Source of the DNA: a virus
Taxonomy: Duplodnaviria > Heunggongvirae > Uroviricota > Caudoviricetes
Length of the DNA stretch: 6,355 nucleotides
Strand: one strand, 5' to 3'
Virus record (IMG/VR): IMGVR_UViG_2684622670_000003
Location: 1 to 6,355 of that record
This document shows positions 1-6,355 of this stretch, in pieces (the first letter of the stretch is position 1; every line of letters starts with the position of its first letter). A program made the position numbers and the translations under genes. Under the pieces are notes generated by a model that saw only the letters and a list, made by a program, of their open reading frames with translations, was not told the origin of the DNA and searched no databases.

Positions 1-532
1 CGTCCGCCACCTGATTGCGGACCGCCCACCAGGATAATTCAGCCAGAGATAATTCCCGCTCCTGTGTGCCATTCATTGCGTGACGAATGACGTCAATCAT
101 CCATGCTGACAAGTTTTGGTGAGCAAGTTGCTCAAGTGATTCGGAGGTCTGGTCACGCAACTGGTTGTCGCAGTGCCAGCACAACACCATTGCGCCGGTA
201 CCATAACGGTGAATGACGGTTTCACTGTGGTGATAATCGCCGTGTGGCCACTGGCAGGATTTAATATGGCGCAACAGCCAGTCAGACAATGCACCAGCAC
301 CACCAGCAGCACGAATCACCCGCTCATCGCTGAAAAATGGCAGTAATGATTTATCCTCAGCCAGCGGCTGGCGAACAGCAGGAACGACTCCGGACGGCAG
401 ACCGCGCATGCTTTTCGGTTCCGGCTCCACCAGCACTCGAGGGTTATGAAATACCTGCATGGATTCACGGCCCGGCTTTAGCACCACCAGCCCAAGTTCC
501 GGTACCGGAACAGGTCGAAGTAATACCCGCAC
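1..532 (-). CDS. Cys/His-rich prophage protein, N-terminal ~177 codons only (gene continues past the left edge); possible HNH/zinc-finger-like motif
   Basis: The third minus-strand frame is open from 607 to position 1; it is missing from the ORF track because it has no stop inside the window. GTG start at 532..530 is preceded by GGAGG (541..537) and lies 1 nt after the TAA stop (536..534) of the upstream 92-aa ORF. Translation begins VRVLLRPVPVPELGLVVLKPGRESMQVFHNPRVLVEPEP and contains CQWPHGDYHHSETVIHRYGTGAMVLCWHCDN. Codon usage is enterobacterial (ccg, ctg, ggt). The 71-aa track ORF 97..312 is an out-of-frame artefact inside this gene. Confidence 0.5.
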   Translation of the reverse strand, partial: MRVLLRPVPVPELGLVVLKPGRESMQVFHNPRVLVEPEPKSMRGLPSGVVPAVRQPLAEDKSLLPFFSDERVIRAAGGAGALSDWLLRHIKSCQWPHGDYHHSETVIHRYGTGAMVLCWHCDNQLRDQTSESLEQLAHQNLSAWMIDVIRHAMNGTQERELSLAELSWWAVRNQVAD

Positions 533-533
533 G

Positions 534-812
534 TTACCTCCAGATGCGTTGCTGGAATGTGCGGGACGGACGCGGTGAGCGCTCGGAGTACGGCAGCCTG
601 ACGTAGATTATCCAGTGACGATAATCGAGGCTGAGGGCTTTCCTAAACTCATACCCACGTCTGCGGTAGTTCTGAATCAGCCATTCGGCCTGTTCTTCAG
701 TGCATGGGTCGTGCTGGAACCAGTCAGATTTGAATGCATGAGAACGCCGCCCGTGCCTGCTGGCAAAGACGGCTGAATTATCAGAATTGTGTAGTCTGGA
801 ATTTTGCGCCAT
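534..812 (-). CDS. hypothetical prophage protein, 92 aa
   Basis: ORF track 534..812. ATG at 812 is preceded by GGAGAA (SD-like) about 7 nt upstream. The TAA stop sits inside the GGAGG-TAA-C-GTG junction with the next gene, suggesting translational coupling. The C-terminal 20 residues (RLPYSERSPRPSRTFQQRIWR) are low-complexity, so a frameshifted single larger gene cannot be excluded. Confidence 0.5.
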   Translation of the reverse strand: MAQNSRLHNSDNSAVFASRHGRRSHAFKSDWFQHDPCTEEQAEWLIQNYRRRGYEFRKALSLDYRHWIIYVRLPYSERSPRPSRTFQQRIWR

Positions 813-881
813 CGGTTTTCTCCGGTGGCACAGTGTTACTCAACAGGGGTTCAGCCCTGCGCTGAATTGTAGATGAATTCA

Positions 882-1139
882 CTAATCTTCAAAAGCAGAA
901 AAACCAGCCTTAATCCCAGCTTCTTTCAGAGACGGCAACGATGTGACAAATTCATTTGCACGCAAAATAAAACCATCCGTCACAAGCCCATCCACAAAAT
1001 GAATTAACGCAGCTCCACTCTTCCTTTGTTGAGACTGTAAACATTTAATACGGCAGTGGCTGACAATAGCGCCATTCTCAACGCGCACAGTATAGAGGCC
1101 ATCTTCACTAAAAATTTCACGTAATTCTTCGATTTTCAT
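882..1139 (-). CDS. hypothetical small prophage protein, 85 aa
   Basis: ORF track 882..1142 begins with TTG; I trimmed it to the adjacent ATG at 1139, which has GGAAGGA about 8 nt upstream. Sequence MKIEELREIFSEDGLYTVRVENGAIVSHCRIKC... I do not recognise it. It sits immediately downstream of hok, the position that rem occupies next to hokD in E. coli K-12 Qin (memory of gene order only). Confidence 0.55.
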   Translation of the reverse strand: MKIEELREIFSEDGLYTVRVENGAIVSHCRIKCLQSQQRKSGAALIHFVDGLVTDGFILRANEFVTSLPSLKEAGIKAGFSAFED

Positions 1140-1257
1140 CAACAGAATCCTTCCAGATAAATAGCACTCCCCTGTTCGGGGTCCATCCCTCTTCTCCCTG
1201 CGCGCTACTTAAGTATTTTTGATTCTATTCCGGCACAATCTAAAACTTCAAACGCGT

Positions 1258-1291
1258 TGAAAATAAAAACAAAAACCCGCCGAAGCGGGTT
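1258..1291 (-). terminator. Rho-independent terminator downstream of hok (minus strand)
   Basis: On the minus strand: ACCCGC-uucg-GCGGGU hairpin (plus-strand arms 1275..1280 and 1285..1290, loop 1281..1284) followed directly by TTTTTGTTTTTATTTT. It lies about 70 nt after the hok stop codon. Confidence 0.65.
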
Positions 1292-1359
1292 AAGTGCGGG
1301 TGCGTTGAGGATGCCTGACACATCAGAGGTGGCGAGGGATTTCTCCCCCGCCTGGTCTC

Positions 1360-1515
1360 TTACTCCTCAGGTTCGTAAGCTGTGAAGACAGCGACCTCCG
1401 TCTGGCCGGTTCGGATTCGTACCTCGCAGAGGTCTTTCCTCGTTACCAGTGCCGTCACTATGACGGTTAAACAGATGACGATCAGGGCGATTAACATCGC
1501 CTTTTGCTGCTTCAT
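1360..1515 (-). CDS. hokD: Hok/Gef-family type I toxin (small membrane-depolarising peptide), 51 aa
   Basis: Translation MKQQKAMLIALIVICLTVIVTALVTRKDLCEVRIRTGQTEVAVFTAYEPEE. It has the family layout: short basic N-terminus, one hydrophobic TM helix, then the conserved LCE[IV]R...EVA.F.AYE periplasmic tail. I recognise it as matching E. coli HokD (RelF). ATG at 1515 with AGGAGAAG 6 nt upstream. The ORF-track 70-aa version (to 1572) is an in-frame upstream extension. Confidence 0.85.
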   Translation of the reverse strand: MKQQKAMLIALIVICLTVIVTALVTRKDLCEVRIRTGQTEVAVFTAYEPEE

Positions 1516-1636
1516 AGCCTGCTTCTCCTTGCCTTTCGGCACGTAAGAGGCTAACCTACGTTTGTGAAGCATAGATTGGGCCTCAGATTAATGTTAAACG
1601 TCTTGCAGGACGCGTAATGTTAACTGGGGCTTTTCT

Positions 1637-1672
1637 CTATCTGCCGTTGGTGTTCATGCCCGAGGCAGATAG
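1637..1672 (-). promoter_or_regulatory. Perfect 9-bp inverted repeat (stem-loop) in the predicted hok mRNA leader
   Basis: Plus-strand CTATCTGCC (1637..1645) and GGCAGATAG (1664..1672) are exact reverse complements with an 18-nt loop. Not followed by a T-run on either strand, so it is a structural element rather than a terminator. Confidence 0.4.
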
Positions 1673-1690
1673 CCTCAAGCACCCGCAGCA

Positions 1691-1719
1691 ATTCTACTTA
1701 ACTCACGTCACCTCGCCAA
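1691..1719 (-). promoter_or_regulatory. Candidate sigma70 promoter for hok mRNA
   Basis: Minus strand TTGGCG (1719..1714), 17-nt spacer, TAGAAT (1696..1691). It would place the transcript start near 1684, giving a leader of ~170 nt and a transcript of ~400 nt to the terminator. Sequence-only prediction. Confidence 0.3.
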
Positions 1720-1726
1720 TATAAAA

Positions 1727-1816
1727 TCAATCAGAGAGGTGATTCATAAGAACGATAACAAGACAATAAATTGCCATTACTGCCACAATAGCCAGCGCAC
1801 ATTTCAGAACCAGCAC
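1727..1816 (-). CDS. Candidate 29-aa hydrophobic mini-protein (single predicted TM helix)
   Basis: GTG at 1816 is preceded by GGAGG (1826..1822) with a 5-nt spacer. Translation (M/V)LVLKCALAIVAVMAIYCLVIVLMNHLSD, stop TGA at 1729..1727. It is below the ORF-track size cut-off. A candidate promoter TTGAAG-17-CATATT (1882..1854) lies upstream. Not verified by homology. Confidence 0.3.
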   Translation of the reverse strand: MLVLKCALAIVAVMAIYCLVIVLMNHLSD

Positions 1817-2057
1817 GATGACCTCCCATATTTGACGTACACGCGCATGATTCAATATGTAGCAACCTATTTCTTGCTTCAATATAAAATCAGGTATTGT
1901 TGTATAACTATTTAACTAACTCCCTATCCCCACATCTCAGGCGCTCAACGTCTGTGTTCGGGGCGTTTTTTAATACCTTACCCCCAGCGGCAAATCGAAT
2001 ACACCACCAGCGCCACCGCCATTGCAATTCCTACCGTTGTGAATGCTTCAGGCCAGG

Positions 2058-2573
2058 TCATCGCAAAACATCCTCCGCGCTTATCAGTTCGTTCCGCTTC
2101 AGGTAGTCCATCGCCTTCTCCGGTAATTTGCAGTCTGGATTAGCTTTTTTCAGTTGACTGACCAGTCGTTTAACCCACATTGTTAATTCGCCAACCTGAT
2201 TACTGGATGCTAGTGGATTGTCGGCTTTACCCAGAATGACAGCACAGCAGGCCTCTTTGAGTACCCAATCAACAGCATCTTTCCATGCTCCTGTTTCGAC
2301 TGGTGGGTTCTCACGCTTTACCTGTTCATAAAAGCGCACGGCTTTAACCAGTCCTTCTGATATCACAGGGACTGGCGGGGTAGTGAATAAGGCCTGAATC
2401 TCATAGCCCGGCCTGTCGTTGCCCCCCTCTTTTGTCGGTACATATTTCCAGTCACCAACCCACATCTTCTCCTGAAAGTCCGTAACGCCTTTTTTCACGT
2501 AGCGATATCGCCATGCAACTGGTTTTGCCTGCCCTGCCGTTTCATGCCCTTCCTGATAATTAATCTCGCTCAT
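2058..2573 (-). CDS. hypothetical prophage protein, 171 aa
   Basis: ORF track. ATG at 2573 overlaps the TGA stop of the upstream 58-aa ORF (ATGA overlap). Sequence MSEINYQEGHETAGQAKPVAWRYRYVKKG...; no motif I can name. Confidence 0.6.
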   Translation of the reverse strand: MSEINYQEGHETAGQAKPVAWRYRYVKKGVTDFQEKMWVGDWKYVPTKEGGNDRPGYEIQALFTTPPVPVISEGLVKAVRFYEQVKRENPPVETGAWKDAVDWVLKEACCAVILGKADNPLASSNQVGELTMWVKRLVSQLKKANPDCKLPEKAMDYLKRNELISAEDVLR

Positions 2574-2746
2574 TCATCGCCCCACTCATCACAATATGCT
2601 TCGACCGGAGTTTTTCCTGCTTCGTAGTCATCACGCCAGGCTTCAGCATCAGCAGCACTTCCACCACGTAACTCTGCATAGTCTATTAACAGTTCATGCC
2701 ATTCTTCAAAACTGACGTTGTATTTAGTTGAACCAAAATCAGCCAT
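2570..2746 (-). CDS. small highly acidic protein, 58 aa (not in ORF track)
   Basis: My own translation of the minus strand: MADFGSTKYNVSFEEWHELLIDYAELRGGSAADAEAWRDDYEAGKTPVEAYCDEWGDE. ATG at 2746 with GAGGAAG about 7 nt upstream. The start overlaps the stop of the 60-aa ORF (ATGGCTGA) and the stop overlaps the start of the 171-aa ORF. 16 Asp/Glu against 4 Lys/Arg. Confidence 0.5.
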   Translation of the reverse strand: MADFGSTKYNVSFEEWHELLIDYAELRGGSAADAEAWRDDYEAGKTPVEAYCDEWGDE

Positions 2747-2921
2747 TTTGTTCTTCCTCTTCGTCTTTTATTTCGTGATATGAGTAATTGCAGTAGTTAA
2801 AGAAAATTTCTTTTGCTTCGTCATGAATTTCATCAGGTGTTGCGTCATCGTCCACTTCGAATACATCCTCAAAATCTCCACCAGCTATTCCCGTTTCAAT
2901 AATTATTTTGAATTTTCGCAT
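2739..2921 (-). CDS. small highly acidic protein, 60 aa
   Basis: ORF track. MRKFKIIIETGIAGGDFEDVFEVDDDATPDEIHDEAKEIFFNYCNYSYHEIKDEEEEQNG; 19 Asp/Glu against 5 Lys/Arg. ATG at 2921 has a weak SD. AT-rich coding sequence compared with its neighbours. Confidence 0.5.
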   Translation of the reverse strand: MRKFKIIIETGIAGGDFEDVFEVDDDATPDEIHDEAKEIFFNYCNYSYHEIKDEEEEQNG

Positions 2922-3014
2922 TTCACTACCGCCATTTCGAACGGCCTCCTGATGTTCTGAGGGTGCAGAAATCCCTCCGGTTAAGGATTAAATTTTTAAC
3001 AGTGCTAAATTTAA

Positions 3015-3371
3015 TTATTCAGTTCTTGATTTTGCCGCCCTGCGTATCCGCGCTTTCGCGTTACGCTCAATCTGAATTAGCTTTTCTATATTTCTCCGCC
3101 TTTCCCGCTCCTCCTGGCGCAAGAGCCTTACATCATCTGCCAGTCTGGTTTCTCTTTTCGCCACAGAGAGCATCCAGTCAAATGGCTCCACAACTGCACC
3201 GCAGATTTTACAGCGGACCTGACGCTCTTTTTCGTCAACACGGACAGAGGCGTGATGACAATATGGTCTTTCCGATGGCTCATAAAGAAAATTAACCTGA
3301 TTACGTGGGTCATCCTCTTTTACCGGAAATAAAACAATATTACTTAACTCATCTTCTGGTTTTATTTCCAT
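3015..3371 (-). CDS. hypothetical protein, 118 aa, with a Cys/His zinc-ribbon-like motif and a basic, probably coiled-coil C-terminus
   Basis: ORF track 3015..3428 begins with GTG; I trimmed it to ATG at 3371, which has AAGGAGAGGAG immediately upstream. Contains CHH...CKIC, then a Lys/Arg/Glu-rich tail (RLLRQEERERRRNIEKLIQIERNAKARIRRAAKSRTE). Confidence 0.6.
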   Translation of the reverse strand: MEIKPEDELSNIVLFPVKEDDPRNQVNFLYEPSERPYCHHASVRVDEKERQVRCKICGAVVEPFDWMLSVAKRETRLADDVRLLRQEERERRRNIEKLIQIERNAKARIRRAAKSRTE

Positions 3372-3428
3372 GCTCCTCTCCTTTGATGCGAATGCCAGCG
3401 ATAATTGAAGCCTGATAGCTAATTTCAC

Positions 3429-3851
3429 TCACAGTACCGCCTCCTGAAAATTACCCTGATAAAACGACAATATGCGCTGCATAACTTCGCTCTTCCGACA
3501 CTCGCGACAGATTATATTCAGGCGCCTGTCGTAGCGACGTATTTCTCCATCTGGTAATGACCATATAAGGTCAGGATCAACCACAACCAGTTTCTTTGAC
3601 TTTGCTTTCGACATCTTTTCGATGGCTTTCATCCAGTCCTTACGTGCCTGCTCTGAAGGAAATATTCCATACCCTGAGCCATATACAACACCACTGGCTA
3701 CCAGCTCTTTCGTCAGAACTTCTATCAGATGTCTCGTCGCCCCGGTTTCATTTTCCAGTTGTTTACGCGTTTTCCGCCCATCCCTGCGTACCAGTTCCAC
3801 AATGCGCGCCTTCACTTCTTCCCGCTCTTCCTGTGTAAATACTCTTGCCAT
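3429..3851 (-). CDS. hypothetical protein, 140 aa, N-terminal winged-helix-like segment
   Basis: ORF track 3429..3866 begins with TTG; I trimmed it to ATG at 3851, which has GGAGG 5 nt upstream. It starts 15 nt after the stop of the 256-aa gene. Sequence MARVFTQEEREEVKARIVELVRRDGRKTRKQLENETGATRHLIEVLTKELVASGVV... Confidence 0.6.
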   Translation of the reverse strand: MARVFTQEEREEVKARIVELVRRDGRKTRKQLENETGATRHLIEVLTKELVASGVVYGSGYGIFPSEQARKDWMKAIEKMSKAKSKKLVVVDPDLIWSLPDGEIRRYDRRLNIICRECRKSEVMQRILSFYQGNFQEAVL

Positions 3852-3866
3852 AAGTGCCTCCGGCAA

Positions 3867-4637
3867 TCACTTTTCCGACACAATACGACTGGAAGAATCG
3901 ACAATCTGTCGGACAATATCCCGGTGCTTGTTCAGCTCCCGCAACGCGGCGCAGACTCGCTCCCACTTCTGGACATGACTTTTCGCCCGACGCAGTTCGC
4001 GGTTTGCCATATGCAGCGATGGTAAAACCAGGTCATCCGCTCGCGTTTCGGTAAACGATGGTAGCGACTGCACAATGCCCGCCACAGTTTCTGTTTTAAT
4101 ATCTTCCTGTGTTGCCGCTTCCTGTACTGGTAACGCAACACCTGCTGGCTGAGGAAAGGCCTTACCATCATTTTCCGTTACCGGCACGGATTTCGGCTCT
4201 GCTGGTAACTTATCGCCCGGCATGCAGTAACGAAATTTACCGTTCTGATTAACGCGTGCCAGCCGCCCCGTTGCGGTTACCACCGCCAGCGTGGAAGCAA
4301 CCTTGCGAGTACTGACACCGAACTTACCCGCCAGTTCCTCACACGTTTTAGCCCCCTCCTGACCGATAAACTCAATCATCATGTCTGCGGTAACTTTTTG
4401 TTCGACCTCCCCGGTCAGCATATCCTGTGCTTCAGATTTTACTGGCCGCTCTTCGGTTACCCGGGATTCACCTTCGCCAGCCAGAAACCAGGTGTGACCA
4501 GTTTTATCAACGACGCCATTTCTTTTGAGTTCCCACAGCTCGTTCAGCACTTCTTCACTACTGATATCAAGTCGCGTAGCCAGTTCTACCGACGTGGCTT
4601 TTCCCATCGCTTTCAGTGCGTCAAAAACAGTCTCCAT
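3867..4637 (-). CDS. hypothetical prophage protein, 256 aa, with two tandem winged-helix-like segments and an acidic/Pro-rich linker
   Basis: ORF track. ATG at 4637 with GGGAGG 6 nt upstream, 32 nt after the P-like stop. Two similar segments (VELATRLDISSEEVLNELWELKRNGVV... and CEELAGKFGVSTRKVASTLAVVTATGRLARV...) suggest duplicated DNA-binding-type folds. Family name not verified. Confidence 0.7.
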   Translation of the reverse strand: METVFDALKAMGKATSVELATRLDISSEEVLNELWELKRNGVVDKTGHTWFLAGEGESRVTEERPVKSEAQDMLTGEVEQKVTADMMIEFIGQEGAKTCEELAGKFGVSTRKVASTLAVVTATGRLARVNQNGKFRYCMPGDKLPAEPKSVPVTENDGKAFPQPAGVALPVQEAATQEDIKTETVAGIVQSLPSFTETRADDLVLPSLHMANRELRRAKSHVQKWERVCAALRELNKHRDIVRQIVDSSSRIVSEK

Positions 4638-4669
4638 AAATTTCCTCCCGGTAAAAATTACTTCTCAAC

Positions 4670-5335
4670 TCAAACAAACCCAGCCGCTTTCCGGCGTTCA
4701 TATTCCTGTTTCAGCAACTCAATTGGCGTTGGTCCCAACGGGCGTTTTGGTGCCGCCAGTTGTCGCCGTACTGGCGGAACGCTCAGGCCGTTACTAACAT
4801 GCTTTGCCCATTTCGTCAGCTGCCGTTCTGCAAGCCGTTTTAATTCCCCTTCGGTCATCTGGCGTTCAATCCCCTTTGAACGCATCTCGAGGCAAATGTG
4901 ATACAGCACAGGCTGAGACCACGGGTACTTATCACTTCCGTCGTATCGCCAGGACTCATTGCGCCAGCGGCGGTACTCCTCCATCACAGCATCCACCGTC
5001 AGACCAAATGGATTGGCCCCGCTTTCCGAAATCAGCGCCACAAACTCAGCCAGGTCCGGAGGCCATGTTTCACCCGCCCGGCAGCGGTCCATGCACTCGC
5101 GGCAGACCTGCCGGATTTGCTGCTCAGTCATCGCGCCAATCTGTGCAATCCAGAGCTTCGAAGGTGCGGCCCCGTTCTTCTGGGTCCAGCGGTTCGAATA
5201 AACCTCCCCCATGAGTTCCCACAGCTTCCAGGCCGTTTCCGTCGCTGATAAATCCGTTTTCACGTTCCCACTGCTCACGTGCTGCCCGAATTTCCTGAAC
5301 TGCCCGTGATGCGGTGCCACCTGGTGCTGCTGCAT
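4670..5335 (-). CDS. phage replication protein P-like (helicase loader)
   Basis: ORF track. The C-terminal two-thirds resemble lambda P as I remember it (PDLAEFVALI..., YPWSQPVLYHICLEM..., LTEGELKRLAERQL...). ATG at 5335 has GGGGG 6 nt upstream and a TAA one codon further up. The start is uncertain because the first ~70 codons overlap the O-like ORF in another frame; internal ATGs at 5212 and 5131 are alternatives. Confidence 0.6.
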   Translation of the reverse strand: MQQHQVAPHHGQFRKFGQHVSSGNVKTDLSATETAWKLWELMGEVYSNRWTQKNGAAPSKLWIAQIGAMTEQQIRQVCRECMDRCRAGETWPPDLAEFVALISESGANPFGLTVDAVMEEYRRWRNESWRYDGSDKYPWSQPVLYHICLEMRSKGIERQMTEGELKRLAERQLTKWAKHVSNGLSVPPVRRQLAAPKRPLGPTPIELLKQEYERRKAAGFV

Positions 5336-6164
5336 GGTTTACCCCCTTGCTGACTGGTTTAACCTGCGCCCTGACGTGATTTACGTGACGGGCGAATTTC
5401 TGCTCCCACTGAATCTGCGTAAACACTTTCCCCTCCGCTGTCCAGTAGTCCCGGAAGGCGGCAAGTTCAGCAGGTGTAAATTCTGTCTCCGGCAAAGCCA
5501 TCCCCCACAACGCAGCCCGTCGTCGAAAATCCCGTGACGGATACCAGCTATCGGTCATCGGAAATTTTCCGATGGGTTCGCTCAGACCATCCAGGAATAC
5601 AGGGGGTACAGCCTGTAACGACAAAACTTCCCGCTCACTGGTCGGAGCACTCTCGCGTGCGTTATGTGTGGGGTTTAGATCTTTGGGTTCCTTTGGGTTC
5701 CGTGATCCGTTTTTGGGTGTCTTTGATGGAAAATTTGGGTGTCTTTGGTTATTTTCCATGCAGCTAAGAGATCCGTTTTTGGGTCTGTTTTGTGCTGAAA
5801 CATAACCATTTTCGGTACTGTTTTTATTAACAGCACCAATTTTACTCACCTTTAAAGACTCCCGTTTTTGGGTGTATTCAGGCTCGGCAACGCTTTCTTC
5901 TACACCGATAAGTCGGTACACCACAATTTGCTTTGTTCTGCCTTTTCTCTCACCGGTATCAACAATTAACCCAATCTCCATCAGGTGTCGTAAGCTGTCC
6001 TGCACAGTCTTTTTGTTCAGTTCCGTTACTTCTGCCAGTGCAGATACAGACGGGTATGCACACAAATCGGCACCGCACATATCAGCAAGCCAGGTCAATA
6101 CAGACTTACTGGATGAACTGCCGGTTTTCACCTTTTTAGCCCATCGTAGTGCATCGATACTCAT
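5124..6164 (-). CDS. phage replication initiator, O-like (N-terminal HTH DNA-binding domain, iteron-encoding linker, C-terminal DnaT/replisome-organiser-like domain)
   Basis: ORF track 5124..6239 begins with TTG; I trimmed it to ATG at 6164, which has GGGG 5 nt upstream. The N-terminus MSIDALRWAKKVKTGSSSSKSVLTWLADMCGADLCAYPSVSALAEVTELNKKTVQDSLRHLMEIGLIVD is HTH-like. The linker is rich in PKNG repeats encoded by the iterons. The C-terminal segment TPAELAAFRDYWTAEGKVFTQIQWEQKFARHV is typical of phage O/DnaT-like replication proteins. It is followed by a P-like gene. Confidence 0.65.
   Translation of the reverse strand: MSIDALRWAKKVKTGSSSSKSVLTWLADMCGADLCAYPSVSALAEVTELNKKTVQDSLRHLMEIGLIVDTGERKGRTKQIVVYRLIGVEESVAEPEYTQKRESLKVSKIGAVNKNSTENGYVSAQNRPKNGSLSCMENNQRHPNFPSKTPKNGSRNPKEPKDLNPTHNARESAPTSEREVLSLQAVPPVFLDGLSEPIGKFPMTDSWYPSRDFRRRAALWGMALPETEFTPAELAAFRDYWTAEGKVFTQIQWEQKFARHVNHVRAQVKPVSKGVNHAAAPGGTASRAVQEIRAAREQWERENGFISDGNGLEAVGTHGGGLFEPLDPEERGRTFEALDCTDWRDD
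5681..5880. repeat. Iteron-like direct repeats inside the O-like gene (putative prophage origin of replication)
   Basis: Plus-strand copies: GATCCGTTTTTGGGTGTCTTTG (5704..5725), AAAATTTGGGTGTCTTTGG (5730..5748), GATCCGTTTTTGGGTCTGTTTTG (5769..5791), CTCCCGTTTTTGGGTGTATTC (5859..5879), plus tandem CTTTGGGTTC x2 (5681..5700). An AT-richer stretch (about 5800..5860) lies between copies 3 and 4. Lambda ori likewise sits inside gene O. Confidence 0.5.
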
Positions 6165-6355
6165 ACGAACCCCTGGCAGACATTTGTTTATCTGCAAAGT
6201 AATATTGATATTGCTGACGATACGCATGCTTGAAAGCAATAGCTTTTTCTATAAGCTCGTCAGTCTCACGTTCCACAACAGATGGATCCGCAAAAAGCAG
6301 CCCGGACTCCACCACATCGCCATATTCTTTGTTTAACCCGGCGATCATGTACGTA
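6136..6355 (-). CDS. hypothetical protein, C-terminal part (frame open to the right edge of the window)
   Basis: ORF track 6136..6348 (70 aa from an internal ATG), but the frame stays open to position 6355, so the true start is probably outside the window. The stop overlaps the O-like start by about 29 nt. Sequence ...MIAGLNKEYGDVVESGLLFADPSVVERETDELIEKAIAFKHAYRQQYQYYFADKQMSARGSYEYRCTTMG does not resemble lambda cII as I remember it. Confidence 0.4.
   Translation of the reverse strand, partial: TYMIAGLNKEYGDVVESGLLFADPSVVERETDELIEKAIAFKHAYRQQYQYYFADKQMSARGSYEYRCTTMG

Follow-up and report, generated by a model that had tools for sequence, protein, structure and literature searches.

Does a hokD-type toxin gene that stands by itself in a phage genome, with no relBE upstream, lack an antitoxin, or does it belong to a complete module whose antitoxin RNA had gone unrecognized? 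An earlier note on the viral DNA analyzed here, a stretch of 6,355 nucleotides that we call the window, raised both possibilities. It described a stand-alone locus equipped with a promoter, a leader, and a terminator of its own; we recovered every feature that it listed, each in its place. The region from about 1719 to 1266 is very probably a canonical hok/mok/sok type I toxin-antitoxin cassette that belongs to the hokD/hokW clade and sits, as a moron, in the early-right (replication-to-Q) region of a lambdoid prophage. The cassette type is already known: this is the complete hok/sok locus of a lambda-like prophage. It forms a self-contained unit of ~454 bp on the minus strand, comprising a promoter, a 169-nt leader (1684..1516), mok, hok, a 3' fold-back element, and a terminator (Table 1).

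Table 1. Elements of the hok/mok/sok cassette, in window coordinates
Feature	Position	Strand	Details
hok mRNA promoter	1691..1719	-	−35 TTGGCG 1719..1714, 17-nt spacer, −10 TAGAAT 1696..1691; predicted from consensus scan
Predicted full-length hok mRNA, ~419 nt	1266..1684	-	5' end GGGUGCUUGAGG from homology; 3' end after terminator U tract
tac (translational activator), mRNA 5' end	1673..1684	-	predicted to pair with fbi in full-length fold, with ucb in 3'-truncated fold
Leader hairpin I, perfect 9-bp stem	1637..1672	-	CUAUCUGCC 1672..1664 pairs with GGCAGAUAG 1645..1637
ucb (upstream complementary box)	1624..1632	-	within AAAGCCCCAG; predicted pairing in both folds
mok ORF, 70 codons, in frame with hok	1360..1572	-	ATG 1572..1570; SD GAGG 1584..1581
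dcb (downstream complementary box)	1565..1570	-	predicted to pair with mok SD region after 3' processing; from thermodynamic folding only
Second open frame, 62 codons, no start codon	1367..1555	-	+1 frame, serving as mok in relatives
hok toxin CDS, HokD allele, 51 aa	1360..1515	-	SD AGGAG 1529..1525; Pfam PF01848
fbi (fold-back inhibition) element CCUCAACGCACCC, 3' UTR	1298..1310	-	predicted to pair with 1684..1673, one bulged C
Intrinsic terminator of hok mRNA	1266..1291	-	stem 1291..1274 plus U tract; 69 nt past stop codon
Sok promoter	1529..1557	+	−35 TTGCCT 1529–1534, 17-nt spacer, −10 TAACCT 1552–1557; 29/29 identical to 933W sokW promoter
Sok antisense antitoxin RNA, ~71 nt, possibly to ~1640	1564..1634	+	predicted by homology to sokW

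Comparison of 1254..1720 with the hok/sok family and the Rfam models, the check that the earlier note had proposed, places the locus within the family. The hok mRNA leader model RF01794 represents the hok-sense strand from the 5' end of tac to the hok AUG, and it scores the leader and the Sok target rather than the Sok RNA strand. The model aligns end to end with 1684..1510 (positions 1–157 of 157, with position 1 at 1684) at 113 bits (gathering score, 59; E = 6e-26), so the match is far beyond chance. The region also aligns with the sokW, mokW, and hokW genes of AF125520.1. The 70-aa extended ORF matches Pfam PF01848 (HOK_GEF) at 81.6 bits (cutoff, 22; E = 3e-23) over profile positions 1–42 of 42, and it matches PHROG 251, “MokW-like host killing,” with an E value of 8e-33. 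The 51-aa peptide, named as HokD/RelF from the letters alone, is indeed identical to K-12 HokD; a single RefSeq protein accession, WP_000813254.1, is common to SMS-3-5 and K-12. Among 56 unique IMG/VR variants, nucleotide diversity climbs to ~0.45 beyond 1719..1266, which gives the cassette sharp boundaries.

No convincing promoter-plus-terminator had been seen on the plus strand by eye, and a generic consensus scan likewise returned no plus-strand promoter inside the leader. Nevertheless, the plus strand does carry a Sok promoter there, together with a terminator-like hairpin that ends in a U tail. Both approaches missed the promoter because its hexamers are weak relative to the consensus (4/6 matches at −35 and 3/6 at −10); the −10 sequence TAACCT fails the scan. 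This promoter, which lies inside the mok/hok SD region, is found at an equal position in 7 diverse hok loci, and both of its hexamers are invariant in the 56 variants. The predicted RNA consists of a single-stranded 5' tail (1564–1580), a long hairpin, and the 3' end GGGGCUUUU. It aligns column for column with the misc_RNA “SokW antisense RNA” of AF125520.1 (65/71 positions identical), it lies opposite the mok start, as do the annotated sokC and sokB of MG1655, and its predicted fold (−28.7 kcal/mol; z = −4.5) has the shape of SokC and SokB. Oligonucleotides published by Takada et al. (PMC8621323) fall on the same elements. The 30-nt hokW probe YO-597 matches 1527–1556 at 30/30 positions, the mutagenic primer YO-421 replaces exactly the Sok −10 TAACCT, and YO-592, the Northern probe for sokW, matches 1593..1564 at 26/30 positions. 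Homology to sokW, sokC, and sokB shows that a ~71-nt Sok RNA perfectly complementary to the mok start region would be made from TTGCCT-17-TAACCT.

These data bear directly on the proposal that hok is an antitoxin-less toxin, restrained solely by mRNA structure or by a mechanism other than Sok. The empty promoter scan of the leader would fit such a toxin, as would the RefSeq annotation in SMS-3-5, which consists of the hokD CDS only. However, plus-strand positions 1529–1634 are a positional and sequence homologue of sokW, sokC, and sokB, and the hexamers on which transcription of Sok would depend do not vary. Moreover, sokW RNA, transcribed from an identical promoter sequence, is detected by Northern blotting; HokW is toxic, sokW expressed from its own promoter neutralizes it, and mutation of the sokW −10 abolishes the neutralization (Takada et al. 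2021; PMC8621323). We therefore give the antitoxin-less reading next to no chance. The other possibility that had been entertained, a complete hok module with an unrecognized antitoxin RNA, was the correct one.

The hok strand holds what had been described for it. The consensus scan finds the promoter TTGGCG-17-TAGAAT, and the predicted transcript, which had been put at ~400 nt, runs from 1684 to ~1266. The leader, estimated at ~170 nt, carries the perfect 9-bp hairpin, which is the first helix of the RF01794 model, and the terminator lies almost exactly where it had been placed, ~70 nt past the stop. Positions 1685–1704, which contain the −10 region, are identical to those of 933W at 20/20 positions. 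In 8 diverse hok loci, plasmid and non-prophage copies included, the −10 box lies 7–8 nt upstream of a conserved G-rich 5' end. Homology between variants starts just upstream of the −10 box, which argues that the cassette carries its own start.

Expression of hok could instead depend on the prophage. All of the genes in the window are on the same strand as hok, which lies between O/P-like replication genes and rem/Q, so anti-terminated transcription from the early-right promoter pR should cross the cassette. Hence, hok might have no meaningful local start and be expressed only by read-through on induction, as K-12 hokD is expressed from the relB promoter. In keeping with this idea, HokW protein is not seen until RecA-dependent induction of the prophage, at which point sokW RNA vanishes (PMC8621323). 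Several observations make it very improbable. In addition to the conserved spacing of the −10 box and the point at which homology begins, the predicted pairing of tac with fbi needs a 5' end at 1684, and full-length hokW mRNA is already present on Northern blots before induction (PMC8621323). Read-through may add to hok expression, but it is unlikely to be the sole source.

The in-frame upstream ATG at 1572, which had been noted as the start of a 70-codon ORF, is the start of mok. GAGG lies 8 nt upstream of this ATG, and the start lies 57 nt upstream of that of hok, as in mokC and mokW; the architecture is that of mokC of MG1655 and mokW of 933W. The 57-nt spacing is found in 54 of the 56 variants of the clade. 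A second frame, correctly described as free of stops across hok, is open from 1555 to 1367 and contains no ATG, GTG, or TTG. In Rac-442/2, plasmid p12579_1, Pantoea, K-12 hokB, and R1-like hok, the mok start lies 58 nt upstream of hok, in the +1 frame, and mok is annotated in this frame in MN652886. The start-less frame is evidently the alternative mok frame used by close relatives, and our analysis accounts for its conservation in this way.

The evidence on mRNA folding is thermodynamic prediction only. Full-length hok mRNA has a minimum free energy of −172.3 kcal/mol (z = −6.9 relative to shuffled sequences). In the predicted full-length fold, tac and fbi form a duplex of −21.5 kcal/mol at +374, and ucb (1630..1624) pairs with the mok SD region (1580..1586). 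In the fold predicted for the truncated mRNA, ucb (1632..1626) pairs with tac, and 1585..1580 pairs with dcb. Seven diverse loci possess a homologous 5'–3' duplex, located 345–378 nt beyond the 5' end; hokB and R1-like hok show compensatory changes in it. The fbi element is identical to that of 933W at 13/13 positions. Because tac is invariant or nearly so (π = 0.003), covariation of tac and fbi is uninformative within the 56 variants, and the divergent loci hokB, R1-like hok, Pantoea, and Photobacterium were used for this comparison. In these models, the folding switch of R1 hok, for which the pairings of ucb, tac, and the SD in full-length and truncated mRNAs have been described (PMC9841398), is reproduced: tac/fbi and ucb/SD give way to tac/ucb and SD/dcb after 3' trimming.

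These folds suggest how the cassette would operate. With tac paired to fbi and the mok SD sequestered by ucb, as in the full-length fold, translation of mok and of the coupled hok should be precluded. Removal of the 3' ~45 nt would switch the fold, pairing tac with ucb and moving the mok SD into a small stem with dcb. By the R1 paradigm, slow 3' exonucleolytic trimming would perform this removal in the cell, and the trimmed mRNA would be both the translatable form and the target of Sok. Sok would block translation of mok, and hence of hok, and trigger cleavage by RNase III. Sok is presumably unstable; once its synthesis stopped, the 51-aa Hok would enter the inner membrane and depolarize or kill the cell. 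For the 95%-identical hokW-sokW, this scheme (an unstable Sok facing a stable hok mRNA, 3' processing, RNase III cleavage of the duplex, and killing once Sok is lost) has been demonstrated in part (PMC8621323). Judging from the work on Sp5 hokW-sokW, the likely outputs for the prophage would be retention, earlier lysis with phage release on induction, or both.

An intact anatomy does not guarantee a killing phenotype, since chromosomal hokA, hokB, and hokC are reported, as summarized in a preprint (bioRxiv 10.1101/2025.08.07.668861), not to cause post-segregational killing. Likewise, four K-12 hok loci are reported to be inactive (PMC5630033). The cassette might thus be a functionally silent relic that does not kill when Sok is lost and does not stabilize the prophage, but we consider this unlikely. 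Among the cassette elements, no inactivating lesion was found, and the regulatory elements are intact and nearly invariant in the 56 variants. The promoter, leader, and fbi are identical to those of the functional hokW-sokW of 933W/Sp5 (PMC8621323), and overexpression of the HokD CDS is toxic (bioRxiv 10.1101/2025.08.07.668861). Furthermore, ~72% of complete E. coli genomes retain the cassette.

Variation within the cassette is concentrated in one segment. The Sok promoter, the Sok hairpin, tac, and fbi are nearly invariant. In the segment that holds the Sok 5' recognition tail and the mok start (1564–1580), π is 0.17, ~17 times that of the hok CDS (π = 0.01). Genomes carry up to 10 copies of the cassette. 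Tail diversity might reflect diversifying selection for “specificity alleles” that insulate the cassettes of co-resident prophages from each other's Sok, a possibility that we advance tentatively and on balance doubt. If true, each prophage would keep its own addiction or lysis-timing module, and the switch between the 57- and 58-nt mok frames could be a by-product of allele turnover. Relaxed constraint is an equally simple explanation, because the hypervariable segment overlaps the non-essential N terminus of mok.

Two other candidate RNAs near the cassette were set aside. A second antisense pair around the small hydrophobic orf29, with a promoter-like site at 1698–1727 and a terminator at 1947–1967, both on the plus strand, was rejected, as the terminator occurs with orf29 in only 2–3 of 32 loci. 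A hit to the small RNA IsrK (Rfam RF01394) at 1351..1270, the location of the hok 3' UTR and terminator, reached only 24.9 bits (gathering score, 50; E = 0.028) and was treated as a chance match; a different origin has been proposed for IsrK (PMC8825220).

The earlier note had measured this locus against the relB-relE-hokD operon of the K-12 Qin prophage, in which hokD is also called relF. Its statement that nothing RelB- or RelE-like is encoded upstream of hok extends to the entire window, where tblastn with K-12 RelB and RelE gave a best E value of 1.2. In addition to the identical Hok protein, the K-12 DNA is 99.3% identical over a segment that begins 17 nt before the hok ATG and extends across the 3' UTR, fbi, and terminator, and the downstream rem and DUF968 (ydfU) genes are common to both. 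Homology ends at window position 1529, 17 nt upstream of hok. Everything 5' of this position (the mok start, Sok −10, Sok RNA, ucb, tac, and hok promoter) is absent from K-12, which has relE instead. K-12 relB-relE-hokD is apparently a derived truncation of the stand-alone cassette, and the window holds the complete form. Pedersen and Gerdes reportedly described K-12 hokD in 1999 as inactivated by rearrangement. The implied view of the K-12 arrangement as the norm is reversed by the counts: the stand-alone form is present in 3,926 of 5,426 complete E. coli genomes, and the K-12 relE–hokD junction is present in 1,173 (~22%), a roughly 3-fold difference.

[quoted passage not shown] Its practical value lies in annotation. 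PGAP/RefSeq labels such loci with a “hokD” CDS only, with no mok or Sok RNA feature, and the use of K-12 as the reference may mislead readers into expecting relBE upstream.

Among the known systems, hok/sok (parB) of plasmid R1 and the chromosomal hokC/sokC and hokB/sokB of E. coli have the same order of elements as the cassette here: promoter, tac, hairpin, ucb, mok SD/AUG opposite Sok, hok, and fbi. The switch between full-length and truncated folds predicted here is that of R1 (PMC9841398). hokC shares the in-frame mok and is 75% identical at the DNA level. In contrast, mok starts 58 nt upstream in the +1 frame in R1-like hok and hokB and 57 nt upstream in frame in the clade described here. 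The Sok hairpin is ~18 nt longer than that of SokC or SokB, and the Hok peptide bears only a distant resemblance to R1 Hok, to which HokW is 44% identical (PMC8621323).

Another close counterpart is hokW-mokW-sokW of the Stx2 phage 933W and the Sakai prophage Sp5, which is 95.1% identical to window positions 1296–1704 (409 nt). We located the 933W copy through the published sokW probe sequence; the RefSeq record NC_000924.1 contains no hok in the nin or early-left regions within 1–24 kb. Identity is 100% in the Sok promoter, the 5' part of the leader (50/50), the hok −10 region, and fbi; the sokW coordinates in AF125520.1 map exactly to window positions 1564–1634, and 933W also has a 70-codon mok in frame with a 51-aa Hok. 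Within the Sok 5' recognition tail and the N terminus of mok (MLHKR… versus MLNTC…), 4 of 17 positions differ between the two cassettes, and the C terminus of Hok differs as well (…FTAYEPEE versus …FVDYESEK). Downstream of fbi, the two sequences are unrelated (16/42 identical), a stretch that includes the terminator, which the window shares with K-12 hokD; the kinetics of 3' processing could therefore differ. Both cassettes are carried by lambdoid prophages, the 933W copy at 58.4–58.7 kb of 61.7 kb, close to the right end of the prophage, and the window copy between the replication genes and Q.

The minus-strand locus at 1719..1266 is a hok/mok/sok cassette of textbook form and belongs to the hokD/hokW type. 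Its 51-aa toxin ORF, hok, encodes MKQQKAMLIALIVICLTVIVTALVTRKDLCEVRIRTGQTEVAVFTAYEPEE, and HokD of K-12 and HokD of the comparison strain E. coli SMS-3-5 share a single RefSeq accession. Extension to an in-frame upstream ATG gives the 70-codon overlapping frame mok, the product of which matched Pfam HOK_GEF (81.6 bits; cut-off, 22) and PHROG 251, "MokW-like host killing" (E = 8e-33). The HokD identity proposed from sequence in an earlier note is thus borne out. The promoter, terminator, and perfect 9-bp hairpin described there were also recovered by our scans and folds, and tblastn with RelB and RelE of K-12 agreed that relBE is missing (best E = 1.2 in the window). Rfam RF01794 matched 1684..1510 over the full length of the model (113 bits; gathering score, 59; E = 6e-26). 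Although named "sok," this model runs in the hok sense, from the mRNA 5' end GGGUGCUUGAGG to the hok AUG, and the match therefore marks the hok leader and the Sok target region.

Features of the hok cassette and neighboring genes
Feature	Position	Strand	Basis or remark
O-like replication initiator	6239..5124	minus	PHROGs
P-like helicase loader	5335..4670	minus	PHROGs
DUF1627, DUF977, DUF7167 proteins	between P-like loader and hok locus	minus	domain matches
hok promoter	1719..1691	minus	TTGGCG-17-TAGAAT
tac (mRNA 5' end element)	1684..1673	minus	
9-bp stem	1672..1664 with 1645..1637	minus	
mok start (ATG)	1572	minus	
hok ORF	1515..1360	minus	
fbi (3' fold-back inhibition element)	1298..1310	minus	
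hok terminator stem	1291..1274	minus	
Sok −35 (TTGCCT)	1529–1534	plus	homologous to sokC/sokB segment
Sok −10 (TAACCT)	1552–1557	plus	17-nt spacer from −35
Sok RNA	1564–1634	plus	gap-free alignment to 71-nt sokW of AF125520.1, exact correspondence
Rem-like ORF	1142..882	minus	after hok locus
DUF968/ydfU-like region	beyond Rem-like ORF		start only

The Tyr47 codon of hok, TAC, is followed by G (1377..1374, minus strand), so this allele keeps TACG, at which TadA reportedly edits mRNA from A to I, turning this Tyr into Cys in hokC, hokD, and hokE of K-12 (PMC5630033); hokW of the Stx2 phage 933W likewise has Tyr, in a different local sequence (…VDYESEK). The hok 3' untranslated region, with fbi and the terminator, gave an isrK match (minus strand, 1351..1270) below the gathering score (24.9 bits versus 50; E = 0.028). 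Since a phage gene with an ASH domain is the proposed origin of IsrK (PMC8825220), the resemblance of hairpin and terminator most likely arose by chance.

The earlier note left two possibilities, a complete module with an unrecognized antitoxin or a toxin without one, having found no convincing Sok-like promoter and terminator on the plus strand. A promoter and a terminator-like hairpin are both present there. In the MG1655 annotation, the antitoxin RNAs sokC and sokB lie opposite the hok strand and overlap the mok start codon, and the homologous segment of the window carries a promoter followed by a short 5' tail, then a long hairpin with GGGCCUC…GGGGC flanks, and finally a U-rich end. The predicted fold (−28.7 kcal/mol; z = −4.5) has the shape of SokC and SokB, with about 18 additional nucleotides at the hairpin tip. 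The hexamers match the consensus at only 4/6 (−35) and 3/6 (−10) positions, and were therefore missed by the promoter scan and the first reading alike. AF125520.1, the original 933W record, annotates hokW, mokW, and "SokW antisense RNA"; the Sok promoter of the window is identical to that of 933W (29/29), and the RNA matches at 65/71 positions. In the Sp5 prophage, HokW is toxic and is neutralized by sokW driven from its own promoter; mutation of the sokW −10 abolished neutralization, sokW in trans gave partial rescue, and both RNAs were visible on Northern blots (Takada et al. 2021; PMC8621323). The oligonucleotides of that study match the window at 30/30 (hokW probe; 1527–1556), 26/30 (sokW probe; 1593..1564), and 50/50 positions (deletion primer; 1686..1637), and the bases replaced by the −10 mutagenesis primer are exactly the TAACCT of the window. 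Together, the homology, these matches, and the Sp5 results leave the antitoxin-less reading unsupported, and the complete-module reading is correct.

The in-frame mok start and a start-less second frame, both described previously, are present; the latter is open from 1555 to 1367 and contains no ATG, GTG, or TTG. In relatives, the mok ATG lies 57 or 58 nt upstream of hok. The 57-nt start is in frame and occurs in 54 of the 56 variants of this clade, in hokC, and in hokW, while the 58-nt start opens the +1 frame in Rac-442/2, plasmid p12579_1, Pantoea, K-12 hokB, and R1-like hok; MN652886 has mok annotated in that frame. The switch is seen even among cassettes with 88 to 95% identity, with both frames open across hok. 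The start-less frame of the window is therefore the alternative mok frame of relatives at 88 to 95% identity, and a 1-nt indel switches between the two.

Folded to minimum free energy, the predicted hok mRNA of 419 nt (z = −6.9) closed tac onto fbi with one bulged C and paired the upstream complementary box (ucb; GCCCCAG, 1630..1624) with the mok Shine-Dalgarno (SD) region (1586..1580). Without the 3'-most ~45 nt, the predicted partner of tac became ucb (1632..1626), and that of the mok SD region became the downstream complementary box (dcb; 1565..1570), in a short stem. These predicted conformations are those described for hok mRNA of plasmid R1, which passes from tac/fbi and ucb/SD to tac/ucb and SD/dcb pairing (PMC9841398). 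In seven diverse loci, the best partner of the 5' end was located 345 to 378 nt downstream, with differences compensated, as in hokB (GGGUGCCUGAGA with UCUCA·U·GGCACCC) and R1-like Klebsiella hok (GGCGCUUGAGGCUU with AAGCCUGAAGCGCC); the predicted long-range pairing is not peculiar to the window.

Beyond the anatomy, homology, and predicted structures observed here, the R1 and Sp5 literature suggests that the cassette would act through 3' trimming of the hok mRNA, mok–hok translational coupling, an unstable Sok with RNase III cleavage, and membrane killing by Hok. Its candidate roles would be prophage retention and earlier lysis with more phage release after induction; Sp5 showed earlier lysis and about twofold greater release (PMC8621323). 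Because the cassette lies on the early-right operon strand, we speculate that pR read-through at induction might disturb the convergent Sok promoter.

The earlier note took hokD of the K-12 relBEF operon as its reference, a comparison that proved to be inverted. A K-12 derivative aligned at 99.3% identity from the terminator to 1529, keeping just 17 nt 5' to the hok start codon, and has relE from there on; K-12 hokD has therefore lost the mok start, Sok −10, Sok RNA, ucb, tac, and promoter. The full cassette (≥80% covered) is present in one or more copies in 3,926 of 5,426 complete E. coli genomes (median, 2 matches per genome; maximum, 10), versus 1,173 with the relE–hokD junction. The cassette also occurs in 101 phage records, variously labeled MokW, HokD, gef, or host killer, and on P1-like and other plasmids (~88% identity); prophage enrichment of hok has been reported (bioRxiv 10.1101/2025.08.07.668861).

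A comparison of 56 unique variants showed a sharp rise in diversity, to ~0.45, on leaving 1719..1266, the mark of a discrete mobile cassette. Within it, the Sok −35 (π, 0.00) and −10, tac, the hok SD, and the coding sequence (π, 0.01) are almost invariant, and variability peaks at the Sok 5' tail and mok SD-AUG (1580..1564; π, 0.17), with three main tail alleles. Specificity may have diversified here, insulating co-resident copies (up to 10 per genome) against cross-talk through Sok; alternatively, the mok N terminus may be under relaxed constraint.

The 6,355-bp window, with every sizeable ORF on the minus strand, is the early-right part of a lambdoid prophage. SMS-3-5 has the same gene order, followed by RusA, Q, tRNAs, and lysis genes. 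It is identical over 467 bp at the hok locus and only ~94 to 96% identical in the flanks. SMS-3-5 matches the window in two blocks (1–3398 and 3786–6355), which lie about 1 kb farther apart than in the window; 3399–3785 has no counterpart in that strain, where additional ead/Ea22-like and DUF4406 genes are found instead. Such differences are ordinary lambdoid mosaicism and show that SMS-3-5 itself did not supply the window. Three exact plus-strand copies of CCGTTTTTGGGT within the O-like gene (5707–5718, 5773–5784, and 5862–5873; spacings, 66 and 89 bp) probably serve as iterons of the replication origin, as found in lambdoid ori; at least three matches with ≤2 mismatches arose in 7 of 200 shuffles.

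Two small hydrophobic ORFs precede hok on the minus strand; neither is annotated in SMS-3-5. orf29 (1813..1727; GTG start; 28 to 29 aa; MLVLKCALAIVAVMAIYCLVIVLMNHLSD) has a strong GGGAGG SD, stops 8 nt short of the hok −35, and is kept in 33 of 86 loci with conservative substitutions (e.g., LAMEGALAVVAVVGVYCLVVFLMDRLGN); it had no Pfam or PHROG match. The second (MTWPEAFTTVGIAMAVALVVYSICRWG; 27 aa; 2061..1978), kept in 57 of 86 loci, had no family match; its ATG overlaps the stop of a 171-aa ORF (ATGA), suggesting translational coupling. Sp5 cloning primer YO-432 matches its start exactly over the 3' 17 nt (18/23 over the tested part). Plus-strand promoter-like (1698–1727) and intrinsic-terminator-like (1947–1967) sites amid these genes would mark the two ends of an RNA running antisense to orf29; such a module is probably not conserved, as the terminator accompanies orf29 in just 2 to 3 of 32 loci.

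This cassette type is already known, having been annotated in 933W in 1999 and experimentally characterized in Sp5 in 2021. Besides the Sok promoter, 933W is identical to the window in the 5' part of the leader (50/50), the hok −10 region (20/20), and fbi (13/13), and the block 1296–1704 is 95.1% identical overall. On the 3' side of fbi, the two sequences, terminators included, are unrelated (16/42 identical). The sites also differ: the cassette of 933W lies near the right end (AF125520.1, 58460–58734), and that of the window lies between the replication genes and rem/Q.
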